Below, piece after piece: positions 2,458 to 54,300 of a stretch of 57,030 bases of DNA (positions within the stretch are counted from its first letter, which is position 1; each line of letters starts with the position of its first letter). The DNA is from Psammoneis japonica (Eukaryota). The DNA is taken from the NCBI GenBank assembly GCA_008632985.1, contig QPGO01000019.1:806001-863030 (forward strand), in the 5' to 3' direction. The position numbers and the translations under genes are program-made. The notes beneath the pieces are model-generated. The model had not been told where the DNA came from, ran no database searches, and saw only the letters and a program-made list of their open reading frames with translations.

Positions 2458-2524
2458 TAAGCAGCATTCATTCGATGCAGTGAAGTTGGCGCCACAACCA
2501 TACTGTATCGCCATTGAAAGCAAG

Positions 2525-7429: not shown

Positions 7430-9200
7430 GTTGGCTCCAACAAGCCATTTTGTCCACATTTACAATGGCACAACCTCATCACAGCATGATGAGCGATGTT
7501 CATCAGTGGAAAATGATGAGTGTTGCGGCCTTGAGGTTTGTATTATGCTGGTTGTCATTTCTTGTAATTTTCTGTTGTCTCAGAAAATTTTCTGCACAGG
7601 CTCAAGGCAATTTCTGTGAGGATCCGCAGATGTCACTGATGATCTGCGTCTTGCTTCTGCAGATTGCTTTTATCCTTGCCAACTGGTCTTCAATGCCACT
7701 TCCTTTCTCTGCTGTTCAATCCAAGTCCTTCACTCTCTGGGGTGAAGCACTGCTTCTGTTGCGGCCCTTTTCAGCAAGAACAACAGTTGTCCTTTGGCAT
7801 CATTTGACCGCCATCAGTTTGCTGCTCCTGCTGGCTTTTCTGTGCAAGATCAGCATTGTTTCCACATGTCACCACTGATGATCTGTTGTCACTTCTCCAG
7901 ACTGCTTTCATCCTTGCCAACTGGTCTTCAACACCACTTCTTTCCTCTGCCGTTCAATCAAGTCCTTTGCTCTTTGGGGCGAATGTGGTGCTTCTGTTGT
8001 GGCCTTTTTCAGCAAGAACACAAGTCATCCTGCAGTGTCATTTGATTGCCATGCATTTGCGGGCTGCTCCCACTGGCTTTTCTGTGCAAGACCCAGTGTT
8101 GTCTCTGCGTGCAATGAATGTTTTCTCCAATGAGCAACCTGCTTCTCTCACCTTCAAGCAGGCTCCTTTTGTGGGCTGTTTTAAAAACCCATCCGGGTGC
8201 AACAGCCCTCTGCAGTTGTGGCATGCCTTCTGTGGCTGTCACCAACAATCACACAACAAATCCCTTGTGTGAATCATTCCTTTTCAGTTGTCTTGGTGGG
8301 GTGTCACCTCATTCTGGCAGCTGGCACCACCCATTCTGGCAGCCCCCTGCGTGCAAAAAGCTCCTGCCACACTGAAGCAGCGTGCTTGCTGGGAGCATGT
8401 GTCAGCCAGTGTCGGCACAGCTGGCAATGGAGTGACAGCACTTGAAATTTAGACTTTTTTCACATCATTGTAAACAACACCAGCCCCAGCAACAACCTGA
8501 AAGGGGCACTGTCTTGACGCAAAGTCATTCACGGGAGCAACCCTTGCTTGGTGGGTGGGTGCAAGAAAACCAGGCTTGCTGGGGAGCATTGACCACACTG
8601 CCATGCTGTTCAAAACATTTCTGGAACCTGAAACATCAGTTTGATGTGCGCATTGCATGTGCTTGTGATTGTTGGTGTGTGTCAGGCATGGGGCAGGCAT
8701 TTTGTTGGTGGATTGTCCCACTGCAATGGCCCACACAGTTGGCTTCAGCTCAAGGTGGCATGGGTGCAAAAGTGGGCCAGATTCTGTGTGTGCAGAACTT
8801 GGCACGTGTTTTCTGCACAAATTGCCACAGTCACCTCACCAACTTTTGAACCCTCTCCCAGATGATGAAAATTTGAACATTTTTCACGTGACAAAGTGTC
8901 CAGACCACTCAACTGCAGTCCCCTCGACTTGTTCATGGAGAGAAACTGCATGTTTTCATGTGTTTTTGAAGACACACACCCCGAATTTAATCAGAAAGGT
9001 GCCAAAATCGCGACGTTCGAGTTTTGCAGAGATGTGGGATGTGGCAAACGACAAATGTGTGAAATTGAAACATGTTGTGTGGTTTCTTTCAATGATTCAT
9101 GGCCAGGGTGATTCATCGAAATGATTCTTCCCCCATTCTGAAGTGCCAGTTCTCAATTCTACAGCATGACAACAGTCATGGCGGCGATCGTTGATTTTTG
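7430..9200. mobile_element. Degenerate repeat/TE remnant, TpA- and CpG-depleted domain
   Basis: Sharp compositional switch after the ABCG 3' end and back again before the helicase; contains an internal tandem duplication; no identifiable domain. Confidence 0.5.
7631..8105 (+). repeat. Diverged tandem duplication, two units of about 235-240 bp
   Basis: Both units (starting ~7631 and ~7868) share, in order, cactgatgatctg, atccttgccaactggtcttcaa, ttttcagcaagaaca and ctggcttttctgtgcaaga. Confidence 0.8.
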
Positions 9201-18240: not shown

Positions 18241-18569
18241 TGCGACGAAAATAAACCTAATTTTCTCCACAAAAGCAAATATGACTTGGGAGAGCTACTC
18301 TAGAAAGGTGCTCGTGTCCCTCTATCAGCGCCAACTGTACTCTACCTACCGGTAATACTTAGAGTAGAGAGGGAGGAGTCTACCTACAGTATCTCTTCCC
18401 TTGTCCGCTCTTTTCATGTTGCGTGCTCCGCCCCCTCCGACGGAGCCGCGGACCTCCCTCCGAGATGACGATTTTCAAAGATACGCAGGTTGAAGTTACT
18501 CGCAAGATTCCTGATTCCTTTTCCAATCTTTAATCGTATGATTCAATTTATGAGTTTTCTCACTTTTTG

Positions 18570-20620
18570 CTCAAAGTTTTGCTTGTTTGCTTTTTGACTT
18601 TTTCTTTTTTGACAATTTTTGAGTGTTCACCGACGATGCCACAGAAGATTCAAATCAAAAGCCGTGGTGGCGAGAAGTGCTGGCACAAGACAGAAAAAGC
18701 CCACAGCTCATCTCTCCGTCTTCTCTGTGCTCCCTCCAAGCCCACCCCCAACACTCACACTTGCACACTCATGGTGATTCCTCACAAACACACTCTTTGA
18801 ACATCGTCATCATGGCTGGTCATCGCGTGATTGAGCTGGCACTCCTCCTTTTCCGCACACCACACAGGATGCAGAAGTGCACAGAGGCAGGGAGGTGCAG
18901 GACACATGCATCCCTGTGTGCAGTGTGCAGAGGAACTGCAATGTCAGTGAATTTAAGGTTTGAAAACAAGATCAAATTGCTTGTTTTTTCTCTCTGCAAA
19001 AGCAAGAATGAAATGATGTGCAATGTCTGTTTCGCACACCAGCCTTCACACACAAAAGCCAGCTCAGCAGATGGCAACATTGTCACATCCAGACAACCAA
19101 TGGTTCTTTCCTGTTTTCATTTCCCCAAACATTTTTCAAACTTCAAGGGTCATGGTGTGCACAGCACCACACATGTTGTGTGCATGCACTCACGCATGTG
19201 TGCGCTCCCCCCTTCATCTTGCAAGTGCTGTTGTCACTGCTGCCATTGGCACCATCATCAACGAACTCTTTGATCTTGACATCAACATCTCCCATCCTTG
19301 CACCAGCCTCTTTCTCAGCAGCTGTGTTGCCCCCAGTTGTGACAACTTGCTCTCAGCAGCAGTGCCAGCTTTTGAGGGGGCATGGCTTTGGCTTGTTGCT
19401 TGGCAGCTGCGCCATTGTCTCTGACTTCTTGTCCATGTTGAGTGTCACTTCAAGGCTTTTCATGTGGCTTTTGTTGTCTTGTCTCCATCAACTTCTTGCC
19501 AAGTCTCTCCAGCTCATTTTTTCTGCTCATTCTTGAGAGTGTTTCTCTCACAGCCTTGGTGTTGGCTGTGCTGCAGTGCCACAACAGTGTCTTTTGGAGA
19601 AGGTCAACAAGATGAGCAAGCAATGTGAGCTGCCACTGAGCCACCCTCTTGGTCTGGCACTGCCCAGCCATGTCCCCTCTCAAAACAGCCTTTGTACGCT
19701 GGTGGGCTGTTTCCACCTGCATTGCATGCCAAGCCATGAACACAGACACCAGCCACTTTGCAATGCAGCAGGAGCCCCACATTGGTGAATTGTCACACAA
19801 GATTGTCCCCAGAAATTGTGTTCTCAAAAAAGAGCCCGGCACTGAGGTGGGTCCTCTCATTGTGCAGCAGCTCTTTGTCATTTTCAATCAACGCATTCCC
19901 AAGCTCTTCTTTTAAACTCAAGCTCTTTCACTTGCTTGCAAAACCAGTGGTGGCATGGCAAGTTGTTGTGCTCAAACAGAAGCTGTGCTTTGCATGAAAT
20001 TTGTCACAAATCTCATGTGACCACCCATCTTTTCATTCAACTGTTCCCAGCTTGGAATCCAAATGCTTGAGCTCCACTTGCCACTTTTTTTTCACATTGC
20101 ACAGATGTTCACATTCATGTTTGGTCTTGGGNGGGGGGGGGGGGGGGGCTCAAGTGGCAAAGATTTGCTTTGGAGCTGTTCTCATGGTGGTCTCCTCTGC
20201 AGCTGCTTTCCTTTTGCTTGGTTTGCTTTCATTTTGCAAAATGTTCCCATGCAAGGAAAACAATTGTTTGTTTTGGGGCTCAGTTCTTCCATGAGGCAAA
20301 AGCTTTGTTGCAGTCTGGAGATTGCTGGTCGCTGCATCAGCAAAGGTGCAATCCATTCTCATGCTCAGCTGGTGTGGCAAGCAGCTTTTGTGCAGCTCCA
20401 AAAAATGAGCAAGTTCGCGTGCCTCTTCTTGTGAGTTCAGAAAACACGATGTGTTCTTCCTGGACAACTCCCACCACTTGAAAGTGGTCAATTGGTGGCA
20501 GCATCTCATGCATGGATTGCTCTTTAGTGACAAGAAATAGATGTCTGTCCTTTGCATGTGTTTTGGTTGCAATTGAAGCAAAGTCACTGGCAAGATTCTG
20601 ATTCCTTCTTTTCAATCTTT
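18570..20620. mobile_element. Degenerate TE remnant (possibly DNA transposase, minus strand), TpA- and CpG-depleted
   Basis: Depleted composition. A minus-strand remnant near 19720 reading V.GL.CNAGGN weakly resembles a transposase D-x-G-x-x-N motif. Poly-G run with an N at 20129..20148. Confidence 0.4.
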
Positions 20621-20629
20621 TTTCCGCGC

Positions 20630-23600
20630 TCGCGCACTGCGATCCCGATCCCGACTGCGGGTTTGTTTTGATCAAATTTTGCAACTCCATGACCTGCATC
20701 CATGCCGTCATTGCCAAAGAACCACCAAGATGTGCCTCCGTGGTGCACATTTGCACACCCACATTTCTGACATCCATTTTCACCCCCGTGCAACTGCCAA
20801 TGTTCAGCTCATTGCATCCTCCTGCCCACGTCAAGAGCTCACTGCTTGGACAACCTCCCTTCAATGGCTCCACTCGCTGCCCCTGTCGCCCCCACCCTTC
20901 TGCGCCTCCCTCTGGCACAAACTCCCCCCTTCCTCCCGCCTCCAAGTCCTCCTCACCCTCCATCATCTCGTCCAATCGACTGTCGACTCCTCTGAGCCCT
21001 TCGACACCGACGACGACCCACCCCCTCCTTGGCAAACTGCCTCCGACCCTTTTTTCAAGCTCCTCTTCCTCTTTGAATCCCTTGTCCTCCACCCTCGACC
21101 CAAGCACTCCAACACCCCCCTTTCCACCACCATCACTCAACGTCTCTTCCTCTTCCGCAACGGTTCCATCCGCGCCCTCTACGACCAATCCCGTTTGATC
21201 CCTGCTCCCGACACATCCGACGAACCTCCCGACTTTGATGACACATCCTACACCCACTCCACCCAAGTTGCCGCCAACGTCAATGACCTCCATGCCGCCT
21301 GCGCCCGGGCCACCTCCTCCCTCCCCGTCGCCTCTCTCACCCCCGAACGCATGGAGCTTGTCAAGCAACTCTGCCCACCCCGCAAACACCCACCGCTTCC
21401 TTCCCCCCCATCCACCAGACACCACTGCTCTACCTCCTCCCCCCTGCACTTCACCGCCGACGACCTCCGCAAAGCCCTCGCTGAATGTCAACCAGGCAAA
21501 GCTCCCGGCGCCTTTGCCGATTCCACCGACCTGTTCAAGGCCTGCGCCCTCCACCGCCGCTCCACCCCAACCTCCACCTCATGCCCCTGCCTGCTCACCT
21601 TCAAACATCTGCTCGACCTCATTCTTGCAGCAGACATCCCTGCATCCATCAAGCCCGCCTTTTCTTCCAACTGCTTCCTCGCTCTCCACAAAGACTCCTC
21701 CAACCTTTCCAAACTTCGCCCCATCGGCGTCGGAACTGCCCTTCGCAGAATCATCGGCACCCTCATCATGTTCCTCTTTGCCGCCACCTTTGCTGCCAAC
21801 CTCCTCCTCTCGGCCAATTCGGAGTCGGCGTCAAAGGCGGTCTCGACCACCCAGTCGACACCACCCATGCCAACATTGAGCGATTCTTTGACCCAGACTC
21901 CACTCCAACCAAGGCCCTCCTCCTCCTCGACTTGTCAAATTGTTTCAACGAATGCTCCCGTGACGCTTGTCGCGACACCCTCGACAACTCTGACGAATGC
22001 CACCCCCTCATCCCTTTCTTCGACCCACTCCATCAAAACCCCAACACTTGCTGGTGCCGTGACCACCGCTTACAATGGTCCTCCTTCTCTCAGCCCGAAG
22101 GATTTGCTCAAGGCTGCCCCCTCAGCCCTGCCTTCTCCTGCCTTGTTTTGGCTCGTGTGTTCCAACCCATCAACGACGACCTGCATCGTCGACTCCCTCC
22201 CCGCTCCAAGTCCGCTGCCTCTTCTCACATCGATGACACCCACATCTTCCTTCCCTTCTCCCAGCTCCCCTGGTTCCTCAAGCGCCTTTCTACCTCCGGT
22301 CCCCAATTCGGCATCAAGCTCAACCCCTCCAAGACCCAAATTCTCACCTCCATCACCGGCTCCTCTCCCATCAACCGCCTTCCACCCTCCAACGCTGCTG
22401 CACTGTCCGAGGCCCTGGCCTTCCTCAACCCTCACAACGATCCCCACATCACACCCAAAATCACCACCGGCACTCGCTTCCTCGGTCGGCCCATCGGCTC
22501 ACCCGCTTTCGCCCTCGATTTCCTCCGCAATGAGGCCATTTCCTTCGCCACTGACCTTCATCGCCTCACCGTCCGGCTCACTGACAAACAAACACAGAGC
22601 ACCCTCTTCTGCAAGTGCTCACTCCCTTCCATCACCCACCTGCCATCTGCGGATGCATGCTGCAACCTTTCACCCTCCGACGACTTTCCACCTCCTTTTC
22701 AGTGGGCATCCCCCTTCGTCGACAAAATCATTGGCCACTCCCTGCGGTTCCTCACCTGCCTCACCCAACACACAGACCCCCTTCCATCTGCCTCCAAACT
22801 CATTGCCACCCTGCCCGTCTCTTTGGGAGGCATCGGATGTCGCGACATCTCCGCCGTCGCCATCCCTGCCCTCATCACCTCCCTCCTCCGCTCCATCCAC
22901 TGCACCAAACATGGCATCCCACCAACCGGTGGCGCCATCTTCCACCTTCCCTCAAGCCGCTCTTCCGCTCTCGGTTCATGGTCCAACCCCCGCTCCACCC
23001 TCTCCCTCTGCCAAATCTTCCGCCACTGCGCTCCCACCCTTCTCAAGCTCGACTCCCCCTCTTTTACCTCCCTTTCGCACGCTGTCGAACACCACAACCT
23101 ACGCGGTCTCTCACAGTGCCTCCACCTGCGCCATCACACACACCACACCCTCCCCTCAATCCTCACCGATCCTTCCATCCAACCAACACTCCCATCCCCA
23201 CTGTCGCCCCTCACAAGCCTGTGCCTTCACTCCCTGTCCCGCATCCCACACTCCAATTGCCTTCCGCCCCATCTTTTCACGATCCTCCTCTTGCGCAAGC
23301 TCCGTCTCCCTGTCATCCCACCCAACCTCTCCCAACACAACTGCCCATGCGGTCACGCCCACCCCGACCCATGCGGCGATCACGCCTTTGCTTGCTCCAA
23401 AATGCACAAAGGCCCCCCATCCAACCACATCCGTGACACGGTCCACACAATCATCGAGACCCTTGGTCCTCCATGCGGCCTCTGCCGATCCCGCCAACAA
23501 GTCTGCCTTGACCCTGCCGGACTCCTGCCCAACCACCCTCTAAAATGCCCCGCCAATGTTGGCGTCCAACTCACCCCCGGCTCCACACCACCAGACGCCC

Positions 23601-24295
23601 CATCCACCCATCAATTCACAGCAATTGACATCACCGTGCCGCCCGCTCCCCCGCCTCCTGCACCTGGTTTGCCTGTCCCTGAAAACCCACTTGACAAGGC
23701 TCACCTCAGCAGCACTCAGGACAAGCTCCTCGGCCGCTCTACATCCTCCGCCCACGGTTCTGACATCATCGATGCCACCAACCAAGCAGGCCTCTTCCTC
23801 CTCCCTTTCACCTTCGATCACCTGGGAGGCATCGGACACCACTTCCATCTTTTCTTTTTTGGTGCCTCCACCACTGCCTCCTCCTCCGCCCCCCCCCTCC
23901 CCCCCAAACCACCCTGGTCCCATCCATCCTCTTTCTCTAACTCTCAAGCATCCTTCTCTGCCTTCACCAACTCCCTTTTGGCTCCTTCCAACCTCCTCAC
24001 CCAATCCAACGCGGCCTGGAAACAACTTTCCCCCGCCCACTTCGGCTCCTCCTACCATGCTGCCACACCCCTACTTTGGGCTTCCCAAACCCTCAGCCTT
24101 AACTTTGGCTTTGCTCTCTCCAACCATCTCTCTACATGTCAAGCTTTCCTCCTCCGCCATCCCTCCGTCACCAACTCCTCCTCCCGACCGTCCGTCCGCA
24201 CCCTCGGCCAACCCTTTTTCTCTCCCTCTCCCAGCGCGCTCCGCGCGCTCCCTCCGCCACCTATTTCCCCAACACCACCACTACCGACCCCATAA
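20630..24295 (+). mobile_element. Non-LTR retrotransposon of RLE type (CRE-like): zinc finger, RT, CCHC, restriction-like endonuclease
   Basis: N-terminal C-x2-C...H-x4-H; LRPIGVG..LRRI, QFGVGVKGG, LDLSNCFN, GFAQGCPLSP, SHIDD (for YIDD), GIKLNPSK, LPVSLGGIG, CPCG...DPCGDHAFAC, and PAN...AIDIT (decayed PD...D). One frameshift near 21810; very C-rich coding strand. Confidence 0.85.
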
Positions 24296-24304
24296 ATATC
24301 TTAA

Positions 24305-24698
24305 GGGTGGTCGGTTGCTACTTTTTTTAGCTCGAATTCGGCCGAATAGCTCGTGTTTTGCATGATTTTTCCTGAATTTCACCGTGCTTCACCGTGGTGA
24401 AAACAACAAGCCATAAGTCTGTGACGGAGGTGGTCCGTCTACCAACTCTCATTTATTTTATGTTTGTTATGTATCAAAGATTGTATATACATGAAAAGTT
24501 GGTAGACGGCAAACTACGTTTTTGAGAAATATCGATGATTGTCATCATCGTCGTGCTTCGGTCGCGGTGGTGATGGTTCTCGTTTTCGTGCGCGATCGGG
24601 TGTGACTATGAATAATTCTTGTATTCAAAAATAAACACTATAAAAAACCTTATTCAAATGCAACGGTAATTTTAGGATAAACGCGGGGATGACCCCCC
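24305..24698. mobile_element. Possible small non-autonomous DNA transposon with TTAA flanks (Kolobok/piggyBac-like)
   Basis: ttaa|gggtggtc at 24301 and gacccccc|ttaa ending at 24702: an 8-bp TIR with one mismatch and TTAA on both sides; AT-rich noncoding interior. Confidence 0.3.
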
Positions 24699-29410: not shown

Positions 29411-29714
29411 TGTCGCGGAACATGACTCAGGCGGGACTCAGATGATTGGGTCCCGTTCACGAATGAAGAGTCACGTGATTTCTGGTCACAAGAATCACGG
29501 CGAACCGGGATGTTTGCGATCCAGGGACGATGGTCCCCCGTGATGTTTGACGTGACGTTTGGATGTGTTACTTTGAGTTTGACAGGACTGTAATTCAGAA
29601 GAAGTAGAAAAGTAGATCATAATTTAGCGAGAGTGAGAAAAGTGAAGACTATTAATTTTAGTTTTATGTGCTACTGACGAGGTGTTAGTAGTATCGGCAT
29701 CTGGTTGTCCAACA
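29411..29714 (+). repeat. 5' LTR
   Basis: tgtcgcggaa...ttgtccaaca; colinear with 34881..35184, 14 substitutions and no indels by manual alignment. Confidence 0.96.
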
Positions 29715-29773
29715 CGATATATATCGACAGTTTGTGGCAACACTACATTCGAGAGTAGTAAGTGAGAGAAGCG

Positions 29774-32700
29774 ATGAGCAAGGAAGAACAGACCTACGAG
29801 ACTTCTTTGTCGTGGAGCGGCAAGAGAGAAGACTTCGAGAATTTTTGGTGAAATTCGAGGCATTCGAGAGCGACCACGGTTGTGAGGAAGCAACCGATGT
29901 GGATCTAGGAGATAAGCTTCTCACCAAGGCGGAATACGTGAATGGAAAGAAGAAAGTAACGCAAGCTAATGGTACAGAGACCGAAGAAGACCTCACAAAG
30001 GAGGACAAGAGGTTGCACAAGCTGAGCGCGAAATCATTTTCGAAGATCATCCGTGCGTTGCCTGAAAACTTGATCAAGGCCTGCAAGAACCAAGGTGGAC
30101 CCAAGAAGTCCGTTTATTTGATCAAAGAGTACCTCAAGAAACACTACTCGGAGCAGAATGTGGTAGATGATTACCAAAACCTATACAAGAAGAGGTTGGA
30201 GCTAGAACCTGGAGAGTTCGAGATAGCGCTGTTCTATTTCAACGAGTTGGAGGATGTTAACTCCAAGTTGGGAAAGATTGATGAAAAGTATCGCTTAGAT
30301 GAGCTTCAGTTGAAGACTGATATCTATTCAAAAGTCCCGGATCAAGGTAACTGGTCCTCTTTCAAGTCCGAGTATCGCAAGGACGGCGCGATGGAGAACA
30401 TTGCCTACAGTGCGTTCAAGCAGCACTATGAACGGGAGTGGAAAGCTCATGGTCCACCAGGAGGATCTACTACATCTATAGATCGATCTTCTGGAGAGGA
30501 TAAGACCCTAACTATGAAGGTACAGGGTAGCAAGTTTTTCCCGGGTAATTGTGGGAAGTGTGGCAAGAAAGGTCACAAGTCAAAATTTTGTCCTGACAAG
30601 AAGAACGCCAAGACGAAGAAATTCGATGGCGATTGCTTTTATTGCGGCAAGCATAGACATAGAGCGAGCGACTGCTTCAAGAAGAAGAAGGATGAAAAGG
30701 AGAAAGACGAAGAAACGAACGAGGTTACACTCGGAGTGTTCGATTCCGTCGACTTGGTTGAGGAGGGTAAGGACCATATTCCAGACTCCTTCTTCGATAC
30801 CTTCGATACTAAGCCTGCAGTTCGAGACGATGAGTTCGAGAGAGAGCTTAAGAGGTGGGATACTCGGTCTGGACTGGGTTACGGCTACGATAGTAGCGGC
30901 GAACGCGCGCTGTCATGGTACGAATGGAGCGAGATGGCGGACGATGAGGACGAAGAAGACGATGACGGCATGAGTATGCCGGAGCTAGAAGGTCCTTTTG
31001 TTTCTGATAAGGTCGAGGATGAAAGTATCCCGCCCTTGGAACCGCGGTATGATTCCGACAGCGATTCGGATGATGACGAGTCATTAGAGCTGATCGGCTC
31101 TCAACGCAAGTGCACCAACTGTGACGGGCCTGGACATGTCTATCGAGGCTATCGCACAACGAAGAAAGTTCAAGACGAGGACAAGGGAGACGAGGAAGAC
31201 AGTATCCCGCCCTTAGTATCTCGTGGCGGTTATGATAGCGACTCGAGCGATGACGAGTCGGTTGAATTCGAGGTTGTTTGCTCGTATTGCGGACAGCCTG
31301 GACACGAATTCTGCACTCCTTTCCAAGAGTTTTGGAATAACTCGGATGGAGAGAGCGATGATGACAGTGTGCCGACTCTAGAGAGTGGTATGGACTCGGA
31401 TAGTGATTCAGAGTCCGAGTTTGGTTACGATTCGGACGACGACTATGACGAAACACTGATGTCCGGTGCGCAACATGAACCAGAACGTGGCGGTGCAAGG
31501 CTACTATTGGACTCTGGCTCGACAGCACATACTAAGAGGTCTGCTGAAGGGATGCGGAACCTCAAGGAAGTGAACAAAGTCATGAAGGACGCACACGACG
31601 GGAGTTCGGTAGCGAAGCTCCAAGGAGATTTTCCATTTACGCGTCAGAATGGGGACGGTACAGTAGTTATTACTGAGATGTACGTCCAGCCAAATTTTTC
31701 ACATAACATTGTGAGTCTGACGAAGCTATTTGAGAAAAATTGCAAGCTGAGTCCGAAGACTGATCCCAAACGAGCCATTGTTCTCGAGTGCCCTGATGGC
31801 ACGGAATTAATTTTCGAAAAATCAGCGAAAGATGGGCTGTTTTATATGGAAGTTGACTCGCTGACGGATGTGTCCGAAATGACCGCAGACGTTTCCGATG
31901 GACAGAAATCTGGACAAAAAGAGTCGGACAAGAAAGTCCATGTTAACCGCGCACACATTTTGCTGAACCACATGGGAGAACGCGCGATGAAAATGGCGGC
32001 AGCAGATCTCGGTTGGAAATTGACCGGTATACCGAAGACCTGCGAGTTCTGTGTGAAGGCAAAGGCTACAGCAAAGCCAACCGTGAAGGCTAGCGATAAG
32101 AAAGCGACCAAGCCTGGTCAGCGGCTCTACCTAGACACGTCAGGACCATACAAAGCCACGCGCGGCAAGAATCGATATCATGTGATGATAGTCGATCAAC
32201 TTACAGATCGACTTTGGTCGATGTTCCAAGCGAAGAAAAATGGTTTTACGGACGATATCAAAGCTTTATTGACTAAGCTGAAGGGTCAGGGGTACCCAGT
32301 CGAGTTCTTACGGATCGACAACGCTCCGGAATGGGGTGCACTCAAGCCAATTTGTGATGAGTATGGGATCACGATCGAGTATACCTCCCCTAATACTCCG
32401 CAGTTCAACGCGGCAGTCGAGAGAGCGTTCCCAACAGTGCGTAATATGGCATACGCGGTACTGAAAGCATCCGATTTCGACGACGCAGAGCAAAGTCGGC
32501 AATGGGCGAATGCGCTGCAGGACTGCACTATCGTTCGTAACTTGGTCCCACGTGGGACTGGAGCAATGCTTATGAACCATTTGGAGAAAAGCCACCCGTA
32601 AAGCCGAAGACCTGGTAGAGTTTGGCGCAAAGGGGTGGATGGCCAAGAGAAACAAGATCAAGGCCAAGTTTCAAGATCGTGCCGAGGAGGTTCGTCGCGT

Positions 32701-35013
32701 AGGATACGCTGAGAATCACTCGAGCGATACGTATATTGTTCAAAAGTTATCAAATCGTCGTTGTGTGTTGACACGCGACGTGGTATGGGAGTCTAAAAGA
32801 CGATATGATCACCTAGACCCCGAGACAGTGGTCGAAAAGCAAACTCCGCGAGTAACTTGGGCGGACGACGCAAGACCGTCAACAGTGGTTGAAGAGATAT
32901 CACGCCCCTCTCAGTCATCCGCAGACGACCCCGACTTTCATGATTCTCATTCACAAATTGAGGAGGGAGAAGAGAGTGCAACAGACGGCGAGGAATCAAC
33001 GGATAGCGAAGAAAGTGACTCCGAGATGGGTGCGCCACCTGACGGACCAGGACAGACGGATAAAGAATCAGCTGTGAATAGTCGATTGGAACGCGAGTTG
33101 AGCAAGCTGAGGACTTCTTATAACCCAGCTGGTCTCCCAAGCGACGACGAGGACGAGGTAGAAGCGGTGAATATGGTCGCAGGATATGTTGATCCGAAGA
33201 ATGATCGCGAAGCGATGACAGGCGACGAAGCTGACGAGTGGTGGAAGGGTCTAGTCACAGAATACGATGGCTTTTTCGACTTGAGAACTTGGATACTGGT
33301 CAAGGAAGCCGAATTGAAAGGTAAAAAGATATCCAAGCCGCTATCAACGAAGAACGTCTACAAAAAGAAATTACACGCGATAACAAAAGAGGTGCGGTGT
33401 CGCGTGCGCAACTGCATTCGGGGGTTCGATATGATACCCGGAGTTCATTTCGATGAATCTTTGCACCTACTCCGACGGATCATACTGTGAGACTCATATT
33501 GGCGATATCATTATGGATGCTGGAACAGTTGGAAGTCGATGATATCGACGAAGCCGAGAAGGAGTGGATTGTCGGGCATTTGTTCGATGTTGTGCAGGCA
33601 TTTCTGAACTCAGAGATGACTGGACCACCTGTACATGTGCATCTTCCCCCTATGTGGAAGGAGCATTGCGAATATAAAGGTTGGGAATACAACGAGAACG
33701 ATCTTATTTTGCTCGGAAAGGCGCAATATGGGCAAGTCGATGCCGCGAAGCGCTGGATTGACATGTTTGTCGGAATCATGACTGAAAAGGGTGGCGTCGA
33801 GCTTAAACGAAGCAAGACTGACCCTTGTGTGTTGTACCGTCATGATGACAAGGGGCAGTTGGAGATTATCATTTTGATTTATGTGGACGATGGTTTCATA
33901 TGTGGGAAGCCGGAAGTCGTTAAGGAAGCCAAGGACTATCTGGCGAAGAGAGTTAAGACACTGGACATTGGACGAATCGACACTCATTTAGGAATTGATT
34001 ATGAGTTGAAGAAAGACGAACACGGTTGGTACTTCGAGTGCAGCATGCGCAAGTACGTGGAAAAGATGGTTGCGGAGTGCGAACAACGCTTCAACAAGAC
34101 ACTTAAGGATTACGAGACACCTGGGGAGCCAGGGAAGACATTGATGAAGGCGGACGAAGACCATGAGCCAGTCGAGCAAAACGGATATCGAGCCTTCGTC
34201 GGAAAGATCCTATGTGCGATGTTGAAGGTCTTACCTGATTGCGCGAATGCGATTAGAGCGCTGACAATGCATTTGACGAATCCAACTAAGGATCACTGGC
34301 ACGCGCTGGACAGACTTATGGGACATCTGAAATTTCACTGTCAGCCGTTGAAGTTGAGGTCACCTTTAGAATTAAGGAGCACAGGGACATTCGACGCTGA
34401 GTGGGGGACGGACAAGAATGACAGAAAGAGCATTTCGAGTGACATTTCCACATTGGGCGGTACGTCGTTAACTAATTGGCAATCGAAGAAGCAGACCTCT
34501 GTGGCGCTGAGCAGTTGTGAAAGTGAGACCATAGCGGGCACGGCGTGCGCGCAGAGCATACAATTCCAGAATCATTTATTGGAAGAGCTGGCAGGTACGG
34601 ACATGTTGAAGATGCCGAGTTATGCGTACGGAGACAACGCCGCATCACTGTTTCTGGCTGTTAACAACCAAGTGGGACAGCGGACGAAACACATTCATGT
34701 TCGTGATAGACATTTGGGCGAGTTGGTTCAACGTGGAGAAATTGAACCACGTCATGTCAGTGCGGAGAAGAACCCGGCAGATGTCAACACCAAGAACGCG
34801 AAGATCGAAACGCACAAGAGACTAGCTCAGAACCTGTGTGACGGATTCGTGATGGTTGAACCGGAACCAATCAAGGAGGGTGTCGCGGAACATGACTCAG
34901 GCGGGACTCAGATGATTGGGTCCCGTTCACGAATGAAGAGTCACGTGATTTCTGGTCACAAGAATCACGGCGAACCGGGATGTTTGCGATCCAGGGACGA
35001 TGGTCCCCCGTGA
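29774..35013 (+). CDS. Gag-Pol polyprotein of the copia element (three apparent frameshifts)
   Basis: ATG 29774 (MSKEEQ...WSGK); CCHC knuckles CGKCGKKGHKSKFC and CFYCGKHRHRASDC; protease LLDSGS; integrase H..H..C..C, YLDTSGP, RIDNA, PQFNAAVER; RT YVDD; RNase H DAEWG..RKS, SSCESE, GDN. Frameshifts near 29845, 32560 and 33460. Confidence 0.92.
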
Positions 35014-35184
35014 TGTTTGACGTGACGTTTGGACGTGTTACTTTGAGTTTGACAGGACTGCAACTCAGAAGAAGTGGAAAAGTAGATCACAATTTAGCGA
35101 GAGTGAGAAAAGTGAAGACCATCAATTTCAGTTTTATGCGCTGCTGATGAGGTGTCAGCAGCATCGGCATCTGGTTGTCCAACA
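34881..35184 (+). repeat. 3' LTR
   Basis: Direct repeat of the 5' LTR, preceded by a polypurine tract. Confidence 0.96.
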
Positions 35185-35316
35185 ACTGCTGGAGGATTTC
35201 ACCTTCATTGCTGTCAACAGTTCCGGTCATTTGAAACTTCCATCACCTTTCTACAGTCAATTGTCTTAAACAAATCAATGGTCCTGCAGGTCGCAACTCT
35301 TCAGGGCCCCAAACAA

Positions 35317-36003
35317 TCAAAATCTGTCTTGTTGCAGCTCTCCAAAGACGGCCAAAAATTGTGTAGAAAATCGCTGAAAAGAGTCCGTGTTGCTCTGCCC
35401 GTGTGATGCACTCATTTGATGCGTGCGACCAACACACGCCAGTTTCCAACATTTGGAACAAACGACATGCTTGCACCCAACGAAACGAAACGAAACACCA
35501 CTCTCTGTTGAACAGCACTTCTGCAGTGTCCACTTGGCTGGCGACGGCAATTCTCGGCATGTGTGAAATGGTTCGTAGCACGTCAGTGCCCCCGGCTTGG
35601 CGTCGGTCTCTGGAGGCTTGTTGCAAAGTGGAACTTGGCAAACAGAGCATGTGTGTGATGTCTGCCTTGGATTGCGGTCGGGAAACAATGACACATGTTG
35701 TGCCTTTTTGTCCTTCCAGATTGTCGAGCTACAGTACACACAAAACCGCCGTAGTTGAGTCTTGCGGTCGTCACTTTCCGATGCCATAGTTGCTGACGCT
35801 TGGCTTTTCTGGCTCACATCAGAGAGTCTTTGTTTCTTTCTGGCTGCGGGTGGATCCATGAGTCCAACGGCAATCAACTGGCTGAATTTACACGGTTGAT
35901 GATTTAGATGGAATGTGCCGTTGACATTCTCATTGAGTCTCATTTGCATGAGCTCAGGATCAGTCACCCACTGTTTCCGAGTCCTCTTCTTCGATGCCTC
36001 CAT
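35317..36003 (-). pseudogene. ORF with piggyBac-type C-terminal cysteine-rich domain (TE-derived remnant or small gene), TpA-depleted
   Basis: RRFCVYC...RQTSHTCSVCQVPLC...CYEPFH matches the R.C..C...T.Y.C..C.V.LC...C...FH pattern, with the expected Tyr reading His. No DDD catalytic core visible. Confidence 0.55.
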
Positions 36004-38479: not shown

Positions 38480-41400
38480 TTAGCATCACATCTTGTGCTA
38501 ATTTGTGGATGGAGAGTGGAGAGGACTCTGCTGGCGCAGTTGCTGAAGCATCCCAAAACCGAAGCTGGACGGGAGGCTCTCCAGCACCCCCACCATGCGA
38601 AGATTAAGGCCAAAAGCACACTGGAAGGGCTGGAGGGCTGTTACTGTCAAGATTGGGACCGAGGACAAATTGGCTTCTTGCAGAAGAAACAAGCATGACC
38701 CGGGTGAAATTGCACATGATGGACTTGGCTTGAAGGGCAGGGCAGCAGGCCCAGAGTTGCATTGTGTTGACATTGACATGAGCACACAACAGGACCATGT
38801 TGCACCAGCTGCTTGAGGACAGCAGCTTGAAACACTGGCAGGGTTGAAGCCAAAGGTGTGAGACAAGAGGGTGAGGACTGTGACACGCAGCACATTCATG
38901 ATGTTGCTTGGCTTGGGGAGATGCCAGACCAACATCTGTTGTCAAGGTGAGCAACCAGCAGTGTGTCACAGGTGGTGCACTGTTGGCTGCACCATTGGAG
39001 ACACAAAGGTGAGCTGGGGCATCCCATGCAGCCAAGGCTGATGACTTTGCCACAGATGTTGTTCTTTTGCATGGTGAAAGCTGAGGAAGAAAAAGTGGCT
39101 GCATCCAGCTGGGTGTCGCCAGTGTCTGAGAAAAAGCTCAAACAACCAATTGACACAGCGCTGCTTGCCAGCTGGTGCTGGCACCCCTTTCAGGCTTTCA
39201 GCCAGCTGACAAGATGCAAAACAAATCTGGGTTTAAAGTGCCATCACTCCTTTGCCAGCTGGCATTTCCAGAAAACAGTCAAGTGCTGCAGAAGTTGACA
39301 GGGACTGACAAGATGCAAAACACTTGAGAGGGATGTGTCAGATCAGCACCTTGGAAGGGAAAAAAGGGTGAAACTTGCACCTCAACTCACACGTGTGTGA
39401 TCAAGGGGGGCAGTGCACCATCAGCTGAAAATTTGGCCAGCTGACCAACAAGCCCTTGTTGCTGGCATGAGCTGCTTGTGGCCATCTTTGTGTCAGCCAT
39501 GAGCTGTCCATCCTGTGTGGTTTGATGTTGGGCTCCTTGGCTCTTGGTTGGTTTGACAGCTGCGTGGCTGTGCAGTGTTGTGGTTTTCTCTTGCTGAAGC
39601 TGAGCTCCCATGCCAAGCTCAAAAGGCTGACGCTCTTGAGCAGCAGCTGTGTTGGCCAGCCAGGGGGCTGCTTGGCCGTGTGTGCAGTGTTCAGAGGAGA
39701 GAAGCTCAACAAGGGAGCAAGGTTGTGGAAGCAGTGCTGAAAATTGCCCAGCAGGGGGTCTCAGTCTCCAGATGACAGAAGTGGTGATGGACAAAGCTGT
39801 CAAATCTCTTTGCAGCCAGTTGGCCATTTGGAGGGTGTGTTGTGCCGCTGCAATGCCCCCACATTCCACGCAGCATTTTGATGAGCTGGCAGCCCCTCAA
39901 GATGACTGTCACAGCTGATGACATGCTGTCAGTCAGTTGCTTGGCATCATGGCTGCAGGAGGTGCTTGTGAGCATGCAGCTGGTGTGACTGGTGGGTTTG
40001 GCAATGCCATCAAGCACATGGAGATGGTCACAAGCGGCTCTGGCACAAAACTCCAAGCCACCTGTGAGGATGTGCTTGTGCATGAGCCTGTTCTGTTTCT
40101 CTCTGAAACTCCTGCTGCAGCTGAAAACATGCTTGGGGTGTCTTCACCATCCTGCTTGTGCTGTGGACAATGGCTGTGATCCTCCTGCTGCTTTGTCTGT
40201 TGCCAAGGCCAGTGCAATGTTTTCAAAATGTCCATGCACAGTGCTGCTGCCACCACCTTGGCAACCACCAGGGTGTGCCCATCCTCATTGACCACCATGG
40301 CCAAGGCAGCCATTGCAGCATGCTGCTGCCTGATGACCTGGCCCCAGAATGTGGCTGCACTGCTCCAGCCAGGTCTCAGAATGGTTGCTGGCAGCAGCGA
40401 ACAATGCTGACAATGTTCTGGCACCATTGTGGTCATTGTTGCAATTTTTTGGCTGCAGTGGAGCAGAGCCTGTGCTTCTGGGTGGGTGCAGGTGGCAGAT
40501 CCAGTGCCCCCCCCCTGCTGTGCCACCAGCATGGGCTGGCTGCTGCTGCACAAAGGATCCCACTGGTGCCATTCCCAGTGGCTGCAAGCAGGATTGCTGG
40601 TGGCACCACCAGCTGGCGATGCCTTTTTCCAGCCCACAAACTGGTGGTGGAATGATTTGCAGCAGCTGTGGACAAGAAAGACAGTCTGGGTTTGTCGCAG
40701 GTGCCAGTGCTGGAGGAGCACAGTTCACATTGTGTGTCAAGCCCATGCAAAGCCCGCTGAAAATGCCAAGTCTTGTTGCTGCCCATGATGTCACAAAGCT
40801 GAGTGCCAAGACACACTGACAGAGGCCAGTTGAAGCCCTCCAGCCAGCAACAGCAACAACTGGTTGAAATGAAATGGCACAAAAAGGAGGTTGTTGCTTT
40901 CTTTTGGAGCGGGCAAAGTGGAAAGTGTGTGCACTGCAACAGCAAAGGACAATCACACTCAGAAGACAGCGCAATTTCAGCACAAGATCTGTGTGAGAGA
41001 AACCTTGCTTCCAAAGATGAGTCTTGTCTTGCCAAAGACAGGCTGCATTTCACACTTGTGCAGGCCCTGGAATGACACAGTGAGGAGCTCACCACTCAGA
41101 ACTTAGAGCAGTGAGCTTGGCAAGCCAGCAAGCAGAAAAAAGGGATGTTCGGGACTTCTTCTTGTTGCAGGTGTGAAGTGGACAGCCTTGTTGATCACAT
41201 GAAGAGATGGGTGTTGGAAGAAACATTTCTTCTCCCATGGAGACAATGCCAGATCTTGCACAGAAATGCAGATCTGCACAGCACGTGGACAATGGGGTTG
41301 TTGGGTGATGTGCTGAAGGTTTGTCCAAATGAAAACTCAGCTCACACAGTTGATGATGTGGGCGGTGGTCATTGGTGGACTTTTTCTGAAGTGTCCAGAA

Positions 41401-41587
41401 TTTGTGCTGGGTCCTGTGCAGAAAATGTGCCAAATCTGCAGAGAATTGCCAGAAAGAAGGACAATGAGTGCACGAGCCAGCACAAGGCAGGCTTCGATGC
41501 CAGCTGTTCTCTGCTGAAAATTGTTCATGTGATGCTCAAATGAGGGTGTGTGTCATTGGCAGAAATGAGCAAAATGGTCTTGGGGGG
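38480..41587 (+). mobile_element. Heavily degenerate DIRS-like (tyrosine-recombinase class) retrotransposon
   Basis: Ordered remnants across frames: K.KRLT (~39615), SV.R, (L)PFGG..P (~39825), DD (~39918), E.P....LG (~40110), HSQW (~40570). TpA- and CpG-depleted. The assignment rests on decayed motifs only. Confidence 0.45.
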
Positions 41588-41659
41588 NNNNNNNNNNNNN
41601 NNNNNNNNNNNNNNNNNNNNNNNNNNNNNNNNNNNNNNNNNNNNNNNNNNNNNNNNNNN
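41588..41659. other. Assembly gap (72 N) adjoining a G run
   Basis: Run of n characters in the sequence. Confidence 0.99.
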
Positions 41660-48814: not shown

Positions 48815-51300
48815 TGGGGTTCTCTAATGTGCTGAGCACCTTTGGCACTGACAAGATTCTGTTTTGTCTTGCCTGGCCTGCAAAGCTCGACGATGCAAGC
48901 TTTCGCTTTCACTTCATCGGTGCGGTTGGCATTTTTCTCGTGAGCCAAAAAAGTCGAGATTGGCATTTTCAATGGCTGAGGTTGCAGCTGACCTCACTTG
49001 CCGTTAAAAAACAACGGGCCATTGGGAACATGCCGATGCACGCTGTGCGCACAGTCTTTGCCCAAAACTCCATTGTGGAGAAAAAGGTGGGCGTCGTCTT
49101 CTCAGTTGATGGTCTGAGCCTGCGAGCTAAAGACCAGATGGCATGGACCAGCCTGCTGTTGTTTGGTGATTGGGGTTTTGTGCAACCCTAAATTCAAAAA
49201 AACTCAAACGGGCGTAAGCCGAAGCACCGCAGGCGCGGCAGGCAGCCCATTTGAGTTTTTTGCCGGAGTTGAGTCATTGCTGCAATTGGCAAGTCATTGG
49301 CTCAGAGCTCCGGTGACAGCAGCTCAATGTGTTGTGAGACCTGGTGTCCTTCTGGTTCATCAAGACATGTTTTCATTGAGGCGTCTCTCAAATTTCGTGG
49401 TCACGAGCATGCTGTCACAAATCTGTCAAAGCCAGAGTGCCAAGCCAGTGTGTCGTTGTATGTGCATCAGATCGATGCTCGCGGTGTGCCTCTTGGGTGG
49501 TGTTCCTTGTGGAAGAACAGGACTGAGCTCGAATTGTTGGTGGGCGTGGTGTCTGGTTGCTGGGGGCGTTGATCCATCCGCTCTGCAGCTTCCATGAAGA
49601 GATGACGGATGGTGTTTTGGTCGTGACCTCTTGCGACGAGTCTCTTCGCAAAGTTTTCTGCGGCGTTGGTGTGATCGCGTGCGTCAGAATTTTGCGTGCA
49701 GAACCATCGCAAGTTTCCATGTGTGATGCTCTTCAGGACTCCTTGTGGGTGGGCGGAGCTGGAAGGTGTGCACAAAAAAAGATTCATTGGTTTTTGGTGA
49801 GTTTTTGCAACAATGCATCCGTCTTCTCCAATCTTTGTTTCCAGGTCCAGGAAGATTGCAGAGGCAGAAAGTGGGGAGGCAACCCATTGAAGGGGGCCTG
49901 AGTTGTTAAGCTCGTTTTTGAAAGCTTCCCAGGCATCTCCACTGTTTCCAGTCCATGCTCCAAGTGTGTCATCAATGAACCGTCCATGGTGCAGGAGGTT
50001 CGGGGTGAAGTTTTTCGTTGTCACTTGCCGTTCATGCAGCGCTTTGTGCAGTGTGGTGCACATGCAAGCGGTGCTTGTGCCCACAGCCGTTCCGGTCGTC
50101 TGCAGCCAGAAGGTGTCGTCAAATTGTGTGATGTTGCTGGTCATGACGACCTTCAAGGTTTCCAGAAAAAAGTGTTTTGGGAAGGCTTCTGGTGTCTCGT
50201 CAGGGCATTCTGAGAACCAGGTTTCAAATGCTTGGAGTGCATGATTCGCATCAATGTTGGCACACATGCCCACTGCATCAACTGTGAACAGTCGTGCATC
50301 TGGTGGCAGCTCTTTCAAGGCTCGTAGGTCGGCGAGGACTTGGCATGAGTCTCGGATGAAGGACCAGGAGAGTGCAAGCAGCTGTTTCATTTTATGATCA
50401 AGCCAAGTCGAAAATGTTTCATTGAAGCCACCGACACAACTGACGATTGGCCTTGTTCTCCAGGGTGAGTTGTGGACTTTAATGGTGACATGGAATTGGG
50501 GGACGCGGTGGGGCAGTTTGAAACTTCTGGTGAAGCAAGTGCATTCTGCGGCACTTAAAATGTTTTTTGCTTCATCACATGCTTTCTTGAGCTTTTCTTT
50601 TGCATCCGCTGGGAGTTGGTCTTTTTTCTCCAGAGGCAGTTGTTGGCAGTTCCGCTTGTTCAGCAGATGGTCTGTCAAGGCTCTTGACATGCAGGTTTTT
50701 CGCTCAAGGATTGCGGGCCCAAGATTTTTGTTGCTGAGGCATGCAATGAATCTCCTGTCTGCCTTCAGGGTTTTTAAGAGGCGGCATTGCATGGGTGTGA
50801 GGTTGCAGCATCTTCGGCCGGCCACAGCTGGGTGGCTCGTGCATTCAACTTGTGCTGCAAAGTCCATCATGCGGAGTTCGAGGTTGCCTTTTTCTATTTT
50901 GGGTGGGTCCCAGTTTGACTTGATGCACAGTCCTGGAATGCAGTCATCACCCGGGGTTTGGGCATCTGCGCTCGTAAGGAAATGTCTAAGGTGCATTGAT
51001 CGACAGAGCTGGTCCATGCTTTCCTCAATTCTTGGGCTTGGTTTTGGTGTTTCGATGCAGCACTTGTGTCCAAGGCCAAGCAGCGTTGTGAGTCCCAGCA
51101 GGGGTTGCATGGTTGTGCACAAATTGTGGCAGGCCAAGTTGTCAGGTTGGTTGAAGCAGTCGGGTGCTTGCATGTTTCCGAGTGCACTGGCTGCGTTCTG
51201 CCAGGGGTTTAGATTTGGGTTTGGTGTGAACCCAAATGTGCGCTGGCAGTGATTGTTGGCGATTGTTTCAGTGGTGTCAATTGGCTGTTGGGTGTTCTGG
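48815..51300 (-). mobile_element. Penelope-like retroelement, 5'-truncated minus-strand arm
   Basis: NKNLGP, RPIVS, DAVGMCANI (for D..SMY.NI), QFDDTFWLQ..GTAVGT, RFIDD, FLDL, KTHQKPMNLFLC.P..SAHP, RPRNLRD. Reverse complement of 51815..54313. Confidence 0.88.
48870..48931 (-). ncRNA. Hammerhead ribozyme-like motif (type I), mutated core
   Basis: Minus strand reads tgccaaccgca-ccgatga-agtgaaagc-gaaa-gcttgcatcgtcgagc-tt-tgcaggccaggca; the core reads CCGATGA instead of CTGATGA. Confidence 0.6.
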
Positions 51301-54300
51301 TGGGATGCCTTTGAAGAAGCAACACTTTGCTCACAACGGCAAATTAACCACGAGCGTGAGATGGCACAAGCAAACGCCAGAGTTGCCGCGGTGTGGTGCT
51401 CTTGCCAGAAAAAGGAGGCAGCGGAAGCAACGGCTGCAGCTCTGGAACAAGAGCCAACTGCAACACCGCCCCTCCTCAGGCAGGCAGCATGCAAAGAGAC
51501 AGAAATTGCAAACAAGGATGAGAAAAAGCCACAAGGCAAGAACAAGCAAAAAAAAAAACGCAAAGGGCGACCGGAAAGCCCCACCGGCAGTGCAAAAACA
51601 AGGCCCGAGAAAGAAACGCCCAGCAGCACAAAAAGAAAATGGTCCGCCAAGCAAGAAATGAAGATTCGAAAGAAACTGCAGACAAAACAAAGGCCCTCAA
51701 GACAACAAGAGGAAAAAAGGCCAAGGAAATGCAAAAGGACCTCGAGGCGCACAGCGCAACGGCGGGCAAAGCAACTCCAGAAACAAGAAAACAGGCGGCA
51801 GGTGCAAATGACCTGCCAGAACACCCAACAGCCAATTGACACCGCCGAAACAATCGCCAACAATTGCTGCCAGTGTACATTTGGGTTCATGCCAAACCCA
51901 AATCTAAACCCCTGGCAGAACGCAGCCAATGCACTTGGAAACATGCAAGCACCCGACTGCTTCAATCGACCTGACAACTTGGCCTGCCACAATTTGTGCA
52001 CAACCATGCAACCCCCGCTGGGACTCGCAATGCTGCTGGGCCTTGGACACAAGTGCTGCATCGAAACGCCAAAACCAAGCCCAAGAATTAAGGAAAGCAC
52101 AGACCGGCTCTGTCGATCAATGCACCTCAGACATTTCCTTGTGAGTGCAGATGCCCAAACCCCGGGTGACGACTACATTCCAGGACTGCACGTCAAGTCA
52201 AACTGGGACCCACCCAAAACAGAAAAAGGCAACCTCGAACTCCGCATGATGGACTTTGCAGCAGGGGTTGAATGCACGAGCCGCCCAGCTGCGGCTGGCC
52301 GAAGACACTGCAACCTTGCACCCATGCAATGCCACCTCTTAAAAACCCTGAAGGTAGACAGGAGATTCATTGCATGCCTCAGCGACAAAAATCTCGGGCC
52401 CGCAATCCTTGAGCGAAAAACCCACATGTTAAGAGCCTTGACAGACCATCTGCTGAACAAGCGGAGCTGCCAACGACTGCCTCTGGAGAAAAAAGACCAA
52501 CTCCTGGTGGATGCAAAAGAAAAGCTCAAGAAAGCACATGAGGAAGCAAAAAACATTTTAAGTGCCGCAGAATGCACTTGCTTTGCCAGAAGTTTCAAAC
52601 TGCCCCACCGCCTCCCCCAATTCTACACCACCATTTAAGTCCACAACTCACCCTGGAGAACAAGGCCAATCGTCAGTTGTGTCGGTGGCTTCAATGAAAC
52701 ATTTTCGACTTGGCTCAATCATAAAATGAAACAGCTGCTTGCGCTCTCCCGGTCCTTCATCCGAGACTCATGCCAAGTCCTCGCCGACCTACGAGCCTTG
52801 AAAGAGCTGCCACCAGATGCACGACTGTTCACAGTTGATGCAGTGGGCATGTGTGCCAACATTGATGCGAACCATGCACTCCAAGCATTTGAAACCTGGT
52901 TCTCAGAATGCCCTGATGAGACACCAGAAGCCTTCCCAAAACACTTTTTTCTGGAAACCTTGAAGGTCGTCATGACCAGTGACATCATGCAATTCGACGA
53001 CACCTTCTGGCTGCAGATGACCGGAACGGCCATGGGTGCAAGCACCGCTTGCATGCAAGCCACACTGTGCAAAGTGCTGCATGAACGGCAAGTGACAACG
53101 AAAAACTTCACCCCGAACCTCCTGTGCCATGGACGGTTCATTGATGACATGCTTGGAGCACATGGACTGGAAACAGTGGAGATGCCTGGGAAGCTTTCAA
53201 AAACGAGCTCAATGACTCAGGCCCCCTTCAATGGGTCACCTCCCCACTTTCTACCTCTGCAATCTTCCTGGACCTGGAAATGAAGATTGGAGAAGACGGA
53301 TGCATTGTTGCAAAAAACGCACCAAAAGCCAACGAATCTTTTTTTGTGCATGCCTTCCAGCTCCGCCCACCCACAAGGAGTCCTGAAGAGCATCACATGT
53401 GGAAACTTGCGATGGTTCTGGATCGAAGAGACTCGTCACAAGAGGTCACGACTAAAACACCATCCGTCATCTCTTTGTGGAAGCTGCAGAGCGGACAGAT
53501 CAATGCCCTCAGCAACCAGACACCACGCCCACTGACAATTCGAGCTCAGTCCTGTTCTTCCACAGGGAATGCCACCCAAGAGGCACACCGCGAGCATCGA
53601 TCCAACGCGCATGCAACGATGCACTGGCTCGGCACTCTGGCTTTGACAGACTCGTGATGGCACACTCGCGACCACGAAATTTAAGAGACACCTTGATGAA
53701 AACACATCTCGATGAACCAGAAGGACACCAGGTCTCATGATGTGTTGAGCTGCTGTTACCGGAGCTCTGAGCCAACAACTTGCCAATTGCAGCAATGACT
53801 CAACTCCGGCAAAAAACTCAAATGGGCCACCTGCCGTGCCTGCGGTGCTTTGGCTTGCGCCCATTTGAGTTTTTTTGAATTTAGGGTTGCACAAAACCCC
53901 AATCACCAAACAACAGCAGGCTGGTCCATGCCATCCAGTCTTCAGCTCACAGGCTCAGACCATCAACTGAGAAGACGACGCCCACCTTTTTCTCCACAAC
54001 AGAGTTTTGGGCAAAGACTGCGCGCACAGCATGCATCGGCACATTCCCAATGGCCCATCATTTTTTAACAGCAAGTGAGGTCAGCTGCAACCTCAGCCGT
54101 TGAAAGTGCCGATCTCGACTTTTTTAGCTCACGAGAAAAATGCCAACCACACTGATGAAGCGAAAGCGAAAGCTTGCATCGTCAAGCTTTGCAGGTCAGG
54201 CAAGACGAAATGGAGTCTTGTCAGTGCCAAAGGTGTTCAACACATTGCAGGTTGGGCAAGACGAAGTGGAGTCTTGTCAGTGCCAAAGGTGTTTGGCACA

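Follow-up and report, generated by a model that had tools for sequence, protein, structure and literature searches.

How can a mobile element lose nearly all of one dinucleotide, and with it the tyrosine of its catalytic motif, while its reading frame and its CpG dinucleotides are largely kept? The question is raised by a copy of a retrotransposon without long terminal repeats (LTRs), here called the element, at positions 20630-24295 of a 57,030-nucleotide stretch of contig QPGO01000019.1 (assembly GCA_008632985.1, Psammoneis japonica), the whole of which is referred to below as the window. The best explanation is very probably a TpA-specific A:T to G:C hypermutation of silenced DNA in a diatom-like genome, acting after the element had integrated.

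The element is 3666 bp long (C 45%, G 14%, A 18%, T 22%) and contains 17 TA and 199 CG dinucleotides, which correspond to observed/expected ratios (o/e) of 0.11 and 0.84. From base composition 149 TA would be expected and, even at the genic o/e of about 0.55 found in the window (about 82 expected), the probability of 17 or fewer is 3e-18. A first-pass annotation, made from the letters alone, had described TA as rare and CG as abundant, and so they are. AA, AT and TT are unaffected (o/e 0.93-1.36), and CA and TG, the products of a transition at TA, stand at 1.27 and 1.52, the medians for the family being 1.18 and 1.32. Loss is deepest in 20630-24040, where 10 TA remain in 3411 bp (o/e 0.07) and about 90 would be expected at the family-median o/e. 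CG in that same part has an o/e of 0.83, close to the median for the family (0.79; range 0.43-1.27), which indicates that CpG has hardly moved from the family level.

That the element has also been spared most insertions and deletions is seen from alignment to relatives and not from its open frame. All nine full-length relatives used in tblastn (1233-1369 amino acids) give exactly two segments, one in frame 1 (20670-21806) and one in frame 3 (21806-24292), which abut in the query and extend to the relatives' C-termini. This points to a near full-length copy with a single frameshift, as had been claimed for these 3.6 kb; coverage starts at the relatives' residues 16 to 130 or thereabouts, and their first 16-50 codons may be missing from the 5′ end of the element. 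No in-frame stops were found in its reading frame. However, the open frame alone is weak evidence for few indels or young age, since TA-free, G-poor sequence has few stops in any frame: loss of TA removes TAA and TAG from every frame, so that long open frames overlap, and the other sense frames of the element are likewise open for 226-988 codons. A change of T to C or of A to G at TA touches stop codons only by way of TAA to TGA, and therefore no sense codon can become a stop, in agreement with the earlier suggestion that inactivation proceeds by missense change. The element is thereby a clean time-stamp, with about 90% of its TA gone and its CG, frame and conserved residues at family-typical levels, and the erasure of TpA was thus early, fast and specific rather than a part of general decay.

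Family baseline and protein-level footprint

An element from a C-rich lineage that avoids TA and Tyr might show the same features although nothing had befallen this particular copy, and part of its composition is indeed shared. Across 79 metagenomic loci from the family, C makes up 22-45% and G 10-22% of the coding strand; E, K and M are scarce and P and H plentiful in the relatives' proteins, and motif C of the reverse transcriptase (RT) accepts F, I or V as substitutes for Y. The dinucleotide loss is another matter: TA o/e in those loci is 0.43-0.83 (median 0.65) and in none of the 79 does it fall under 0.25. Among 186 relatives' proteins the median Tyr content is 2.5%; in the element it is 0.1-0.5%, with 3 Tyr counted in 1247 residues. 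In addition, the last 255 bp of the element itself stand at a TA o/e of 0.73, and other genomic copies have TA where the element has CA. The catalytic YIDD motif reads HIDD, as first annotated (CAC ATC GAT GAC), and the first residue of this motif is Y, F, I or V, and never His, in the 42 relatives aligned. The annotation had reckoned with relatives that are equally Tyr-poor and carry His in the motif; only C-richness proved to be common to them. A C-rich, G-poor strand is thus a family trait and TA loss is not, and an inherited composition, already contradicted by these counts, is highly improbable as the explanation.

The footprint in the protein is equally selective. At the seven columns where at least half of the 42 relatives have Tyr, the element has kept none, reading F at three, H at two and C at two, whereas the fraction kept by relatives scored likewise averages 0.64 and is never below 0.33. 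Where Tyr makes up at least 25% of a column (25 columns), the element reads F ten times, C six times, H five times, P twice, and K and Y once each. Cys of the element falls at Tyr-rich columns in 6/29 cases as compared with 5/537 in relatives (p = 4e-6), and His in 5/48 as compared with 95/2195 (p = 0.06). The proposed check of Tyr conservation at the His and Cys positions is borne out by these six Cys and five His, and six Tyr to Cys (TA to TG) with five Tyr to His (TA to CA) indicate that both strands were hit about equally. Conserved Arg, which would register CpG change, is kept at 13 of 18 columns (relatives' mean 0.85), the losses being to C, C, H, Q and K and mostly of CpG type, to be set against 0/7 for Tyr. 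The remaining residue classes are retained at family-typical rates in the alignment with the 42 relatives.

Seven of the 186 public relatives (P0040, P0041, P0062, P0090, P0127, P0183 and P0186) are themselves Tyr-poor (0-0.8%) and Cys-rich (3.4-4.2%), a signature which indicates that other public assemblies contain predicted proteins derived from hypermutated copies of the family. A metagenome scan found no locus for P0183. Erasure of TpA accounts for such Tyr-free, Cys/His-rich ‘proteins’ in public collections, and gene finders are liable to be misled by dead elements in which several frames stay open over long distances. In the TA-free tract around the element both strands carry long spurious open frames, among them one of 413 codons in antisense (20337-21578, minus strand) and the frames of 20577-24365.

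Direction, timing and extent of the changes

TA erasure is continuous over a tract (o/e 0.07; Table 1) whose left part, 18550-20629, is a relic with CG erased too (o/e 0.22) and whose right part is the element with CG kept. The right edge, at 24041, is sharp and lies within the element, about 255 bp before its end and on the gene side. Beyond it are 7 TA in 255 bp, compared with the 10 that remain in 20630-24040 (Fisher p = 8e-5); the return of TA reported by the annotation is thus real, although it occupies the last 255 bp or so and not the last 400. The neighbouring zf-MYND gene has a TA o/e of 0.54, and genes in general 0.4-0.7. An edge inside an element and next to a gene offers a testable link to chromatin boundaries. 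Of 114 intervals of 500 bp that make up the window, 23 have TA erased and CG kept, 31 have both erased, and none has CG erased and TA kept; TA is therefore lost before CG. CA and TG reach o/e 1.7-2.3 in the old blocks where both are erased.

Direction and timing can be read from a Copia-type LTR element within the window. LTRs are identical at the time of insertion, and the changes between this pair therefore arose after integration and run from TA to CA or TG. Fourteen differences separate them, ten of which are TA in the 5′ LTR against CA (eight) or TG (two) in the 3′ LTR, all at 35061-35162; of the others three are of CpG type and one is of another kind, and the LTRs are still 95% identical. 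In the 3′ LTR that was hit, 10 of 14 TA sites have changed as compared with 1 of 18 CG sites (p = 1.4e-4), which, taken with the CG level of the element, upholds the claim that TpA loss is far faster than CpG decay. The body of the Copia-type element is normal in TA and CG, and its 3′ LTR marks the margin of a partial tract poor in TA (35001-36000, o/e 0.19-0.24), which extends into the flank. Since this tract spans both the LTR and flanking DNA, tracts ignore element borders.

A second pair, formed by inverted arms of an RT-like element, has TA erased and CG partly kept (7 shared TA, 63 shared CG). Among its 187 mismatches 179 are transitions, and 161 fall in the TA/CG/CA/TG classes: 53 are CG against CA or TG, 45 are CA/TG swaps and 18 are TA against CA or TG. 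A runs test found no clustering of strand-coordinated hits in this pair (25 runs, 23.3 expected).

These pairs bear on the possibility that the element was edited before it integrated, either as RNA, by an ADAR-like adenosine to inosine change, or as deaminated first-strand cDNA that was then inserted. Editing of ADAR or APOBEC type affects one strand only, and the whole of the copied molecule. In the element the near-equal Tyr to Cys and Tyr to His changes point to both strands, the 3′ tail, which belongs to the same transcript, escaped, and the absence of TA continues for 2 kb into flanking DNA that is not part of the element. For these reasons prior editing seems unlikely for the element and, as the LTR and inverted pairs show like changes after integration or duplication, we give it little credence overall, even though the element has no close partner in the window, its timing being read from the other pairs, and edited retroelement copies, as an account of APOBEC in animals describes (PMC4866542), are known.

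Age presents a different challenge to post-integration hypermutation, in that an ordinary, TpA-skewed mutation spectrum could have acted slowly on an element that is merely old. The blocks with both TA and CG erased do show that the process completes over long times, and the rates obtained here are relative, not per generation. Yet CG is at the family median, there is one frameshift, and strongly conserved columns are changed at 18 of 145, inside the relatives' own range of 1-16%. The sharp tract edges also speak against slow decay, as do LTRs that are 95% identical and nevertheless differ at 10 of 14 TA sites, with all of the changes in one LTR. Slow decay without a dedicated process is accordingly an unlikely account, and the annotation's view that this is not ordinary ageing stands on the CG level and the single frameshift, subject to the caveat given below.

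Other copies of the element could be compared by means of a public sequencing run, X1, which contains 58% of the window's 31-mers and from which 1375 contigs were aligned at an identity of at least 80%; the sequencing runs listed as containing the window included none of RNA. Summed contig depth is about 57 in the unique flank, relic included, and 450-4,300 along the element; depth is not copy number, and the family is clearly multi-copy. The comparison covers 40 of 614 variant places, of which 37 rows were used (those for 23980, 24005 and 24431 were excluded as minority variants or as found in X2 only), and 35 of these rows lie in the element and represent 29 sites. At two sites the element has CA where other copies have TA (21090 and 22671), and at two others it has TA where most copies have TG (24054, in a conserved Tyr codon, and 24073); at three it has CG where others have TG or CA, and eight are of other kinds. 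Differing TA, CA and TG states among copies indicate that other copies have been hit as well, independently and to varying extents.

Such differences are also pertinent to a reading artefact, by which modified TA in silenced DNA would be miscalled as CA or TG. No platform is recorded for the sequencing of the assembly or of X1, and only 58% of the window's 31-mers are present in X1. A systematic miscall is nonetheless hardly credible: copies differ in product, TG or CA, at the same place, the CpG-erased blocks are real long-term decay in the same tracts, and, in the chlorarachniophyte Bigelowiella natans, a preprint reports like changes called from Illumina reads of mutation-accumulation lines (10.64898/2026.01.13.699255).

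Several observations weigh against hypermutation at TpA as the full account of the element. Phe, at three of the seven conserved-Tyr columns, is not a product of TpA chemistry, and may be ancestral. CpG decay of the element is not nil, with R to C and D to N in its nuclease motif, and both CpG-type changes and a frameshift have therefore struck it along with TA loss. At 9 of the 29 best-supported sites it has TG or CA where other copies have CG, a private CpG decay that appears small but real, and at a further 5 copies differ by TG/CA swaps that are derivable from TA or from CG. With 40 of 614 places compared, a minority of the CA and TG in the element is individually polarised. In the inverted pair a uniform-rate model predicts about 11 CA/TG swaps where 45 are seen, and the rate is therefore uneven across sites; because of this underprediction a uniform per-site rate was dropped as a basis for rate estimates. 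Finally, while the signature, its direction, its locality, its timing after integration in the LTR and inverted pairs and its pace relative to CpG decay are shown by these data, the enzyme and its action in silenced chromatin are inferred.

A candidate agent and its precedents

With these reservations, the course of events under post-integration hypermutation can be sketched. A retrotransposon with a single open reading frame would have inserted beside an older repeat relic, and a process specific for A:T to G:C change at TpA would then have passed over a sharply bounded tract (about 18550 to 24040), converting roughly nine in ten TA to CA or TG on both strands. This would have preceded much CpG decay, indels or other substitutions, and Tyr codons would have become His or Cys codons, that of the RT active-site motif included, leaving a copy that is dead yet open. 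The agent would be an enzyme that works on the DNA of silenced chromatin, most likely by deaminating adenine to inosine as proposed for B. natans, though a modification on the thymine side would have an identical sequence outcome and sequence data would not separate the two.

De novo TpA to TpG/CpA hypermutation has been described in mutation-accumulation lines of B. natans (Mettrop et al., bioRxiv 2026, 10.64898/2026.01.13.699255). According to that preprint the targets are integrated giant-virus and virophage DNA, TpA-poor coding sequences are enriched for RT and endonuclease domains, and an ADAT2-like enzyme that deaminates DNA adenine is proposed. The likeness is close: changes are almost exclusively A to G and T to C at TpA on both strands, they are in local tracts over foreign or mobile DNA with adjoining host genes untouched, and TpA depletion is accompanied by CpA and TpG enrichment. 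All of these are found in the present window. The contrasts are that the host here is diatom-like and not a chlorarachniophyte; that the target is a retrotransposon and repeat tracts; that loss is near saturation (o/e 0.07, against 0.45 in the B. natans region of nucleocytoplasmic large DNA virus origin); and that edges are sharp and inside an element, CpG decay runs in parallel, and the rates obtained are relative ones. A full-text literature search found no reports of TpA hypermutation in diatoms. The preprint is the one precedent found, and the signature is here extended to a diatom-like genome and to retrotransposons.

A broader proposal, which we put forward tentatively, is that diatoms run a dedicated DNA editor, guided by chromatin domains, that converts TpA to TpG or CpA in silenced tracts, fast in relation to CpG decay, and that would kill transposons purely by missense change with long open frames kept. 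Were it shared with chlorarachniophytes, it would represent an ancient means of defending the genome in the SAR group (stramenopiles, alveolates and Rhizaria) and not an oddity of one species.

The comparison with repeat-induced point mutation (RIP), a process that changes C to T at CpA in duplicated DNA, raises TpA and creates stop codons, is instructive. Both hypermutate locally by transitions at specific dinucleotides, and in both mobile DNA is killed once it has integrated, with neighbouring genes spared. The direction is opposite, however: RIP makes TpA from CpA or TpG, whereas here TpA is destroyed and no stops can arise, and the element is depleted in TpA with no in-frame stops. RIP is a system of ascomycete fungi (PMC7296669, PMC3318451). 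Methylation-driven CpG decay also has its counterpart in the same tracts, where CG has undergone transitions to TG or CA and old blocks have fallen to CG o/e 0.05-0.3, but here it lags far behind TA loss and has scarcely touched the element.

Structure of the element and its surroundings

Features are collected in Table 1. RVT_1 is matched with an E value of 2.9e-8, and the Pfam scan matched no other family in the element. Among 1.84 billion representative proteins, 841 were homologues at E <= 1e-3 (top identity 39%), and a second protein collection yielded 44 (top identity 43%). Against solved structures the single sequence had no match; a family profile matched R2 proteins best (E 2e-5), and R2 and LINE-1 ORF2 at E 2e-5 to 6e-5, over the RT part only.

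Table 1. Positions, counted from the first letter of the window, of the features discussed
Feature	Positions	Strand	Basis
Continuous TA-erased tract, o/e 0.07	18550..24040		TA positions, o/e values, 500-bp profile
Non-LTR retrotransposon copy, near full-length, dead	20630..24295	+	tblastn with nine full-length relatives; Pfam RVT_1
C2H2-type zinc finger CxxC-x12-HxxxH, frame 1	20703..20762	+	read from translation
Single frameshift from frame 1 into frame 3 (loss of 1 base or gain of 2)	21806..21811	+	tblastn segments
RT core: motif A LLLLDLSNCFNE, motif B QPEGFAQGCPLSP, motif C HIDD at 22226-22237	21917..22237	+	Pfam, alignment with 42 relatives
C-terminal CCHC and putative, degenerate nuclease motifs	23342..23638	+	invariant columns of consensus A1, mismatch list
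Spared 3′ tail of the element, including conserved Tyr codon at 24053	24041..24295	+	TA positions
Copia-type LTR element (Pol_BBD, RVT_2), 300-nt LTRs 29411-29710 and 34881-35180	29411..35180	+	self-comparison, Pfam
Inverted pair of RT-like element, arms 48826-51300 and 51816-54246, 90.5% identical	48826..54246		self-comparison

In A1, the family consensus from an alignment of 20 relatives, there are two CxxC..HxxxxH fingers at the N-terminus, and the invariant C-terminal columns are C956, C959, H969, C973, E1011, P1024, A1025, D1026, D1045 and K1078, which, by eye against a general consensus, we read as a CCHC motif and a putative restriction-like nuclease of the type in R2, CRE and NeSL elements. 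In the element the conserved E has become D (23510) and RPAD has become CPAN (23546, 23555), with AIDITV intact; R to C and D to N are read as CpG-type changes, and E to D is not of this type. The annotation's label 'CRE-like' is a tentative one; the CRE clade comprises CRE1, SLACS and CZAR and inserts into spliced-leader genes. A single open reading frame without LTRs, an N-terminal zinc finger, RT, and C-terminal CCHC and putative PD..D..K-type nuclease motifs would be likenesses to the non-LTR clades with a restriction-like endonuclease, among which R2, CRE and NeSL are named (PMC5753468). Two X1 contigs have an extra base after 21811, and the frameshift may be common to other copies, because most of the X1 depth there is without an indel.

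The open reading frames that neighbour the element in the window are eukaryotic (ABC transporter, DEAD helicase, SET, zf-TAZ, zf-MYND and sulfatase). Named homologues are from diatoms, namely Bacillariaceae sp., Fistulifera solaris and Cyclotella meneghiniana, and none of the recorded proteins is near-identical (top identity 53%). An Rfam scan of the window gave no RNA gene matches, and self-comparison found no second copy within the window of the element, of the relic at 18550-20629 or of the unit at 24296-24660. Directly past the element's stop codon the unit 24301-24570, of normal TA content (o/e 0.75) and with a 13-nt inverted repeat (24435-24447 and 24497-24509), has a summed X1 depth of up to 19804, which is far beyond that of the element itself. 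At about 24301-24323 X1 contigs run from it into unrelated DNA; it is perhaps a small non-autonomous element, perhaps the insertion target of the family.

TA o/e is below 0.25 in 54 of the 114 intervals, about half of the window, and the blocks with both dinucleotides erased (TA o/e 0-0.17, CG o/e 0-0.37) are at 1-1500, 7501-9000, 18550-20629, 38501-41600, 43501-49000 and 54501-57030. Assembly gaps occur inside TA-erased blocks, one at 20132-20150 as a G-run with one N and one at 41501-42000 with 72 N. The copies of the inverted pair, which have no Pfam match and contain ‘GRFIDDTLG’, are head to head around a 515-bp A-rich spacer, and they are flanked by a 97% direct repeat, 48631-48809 and 54320-54499, the whole spanning 48631-54499.

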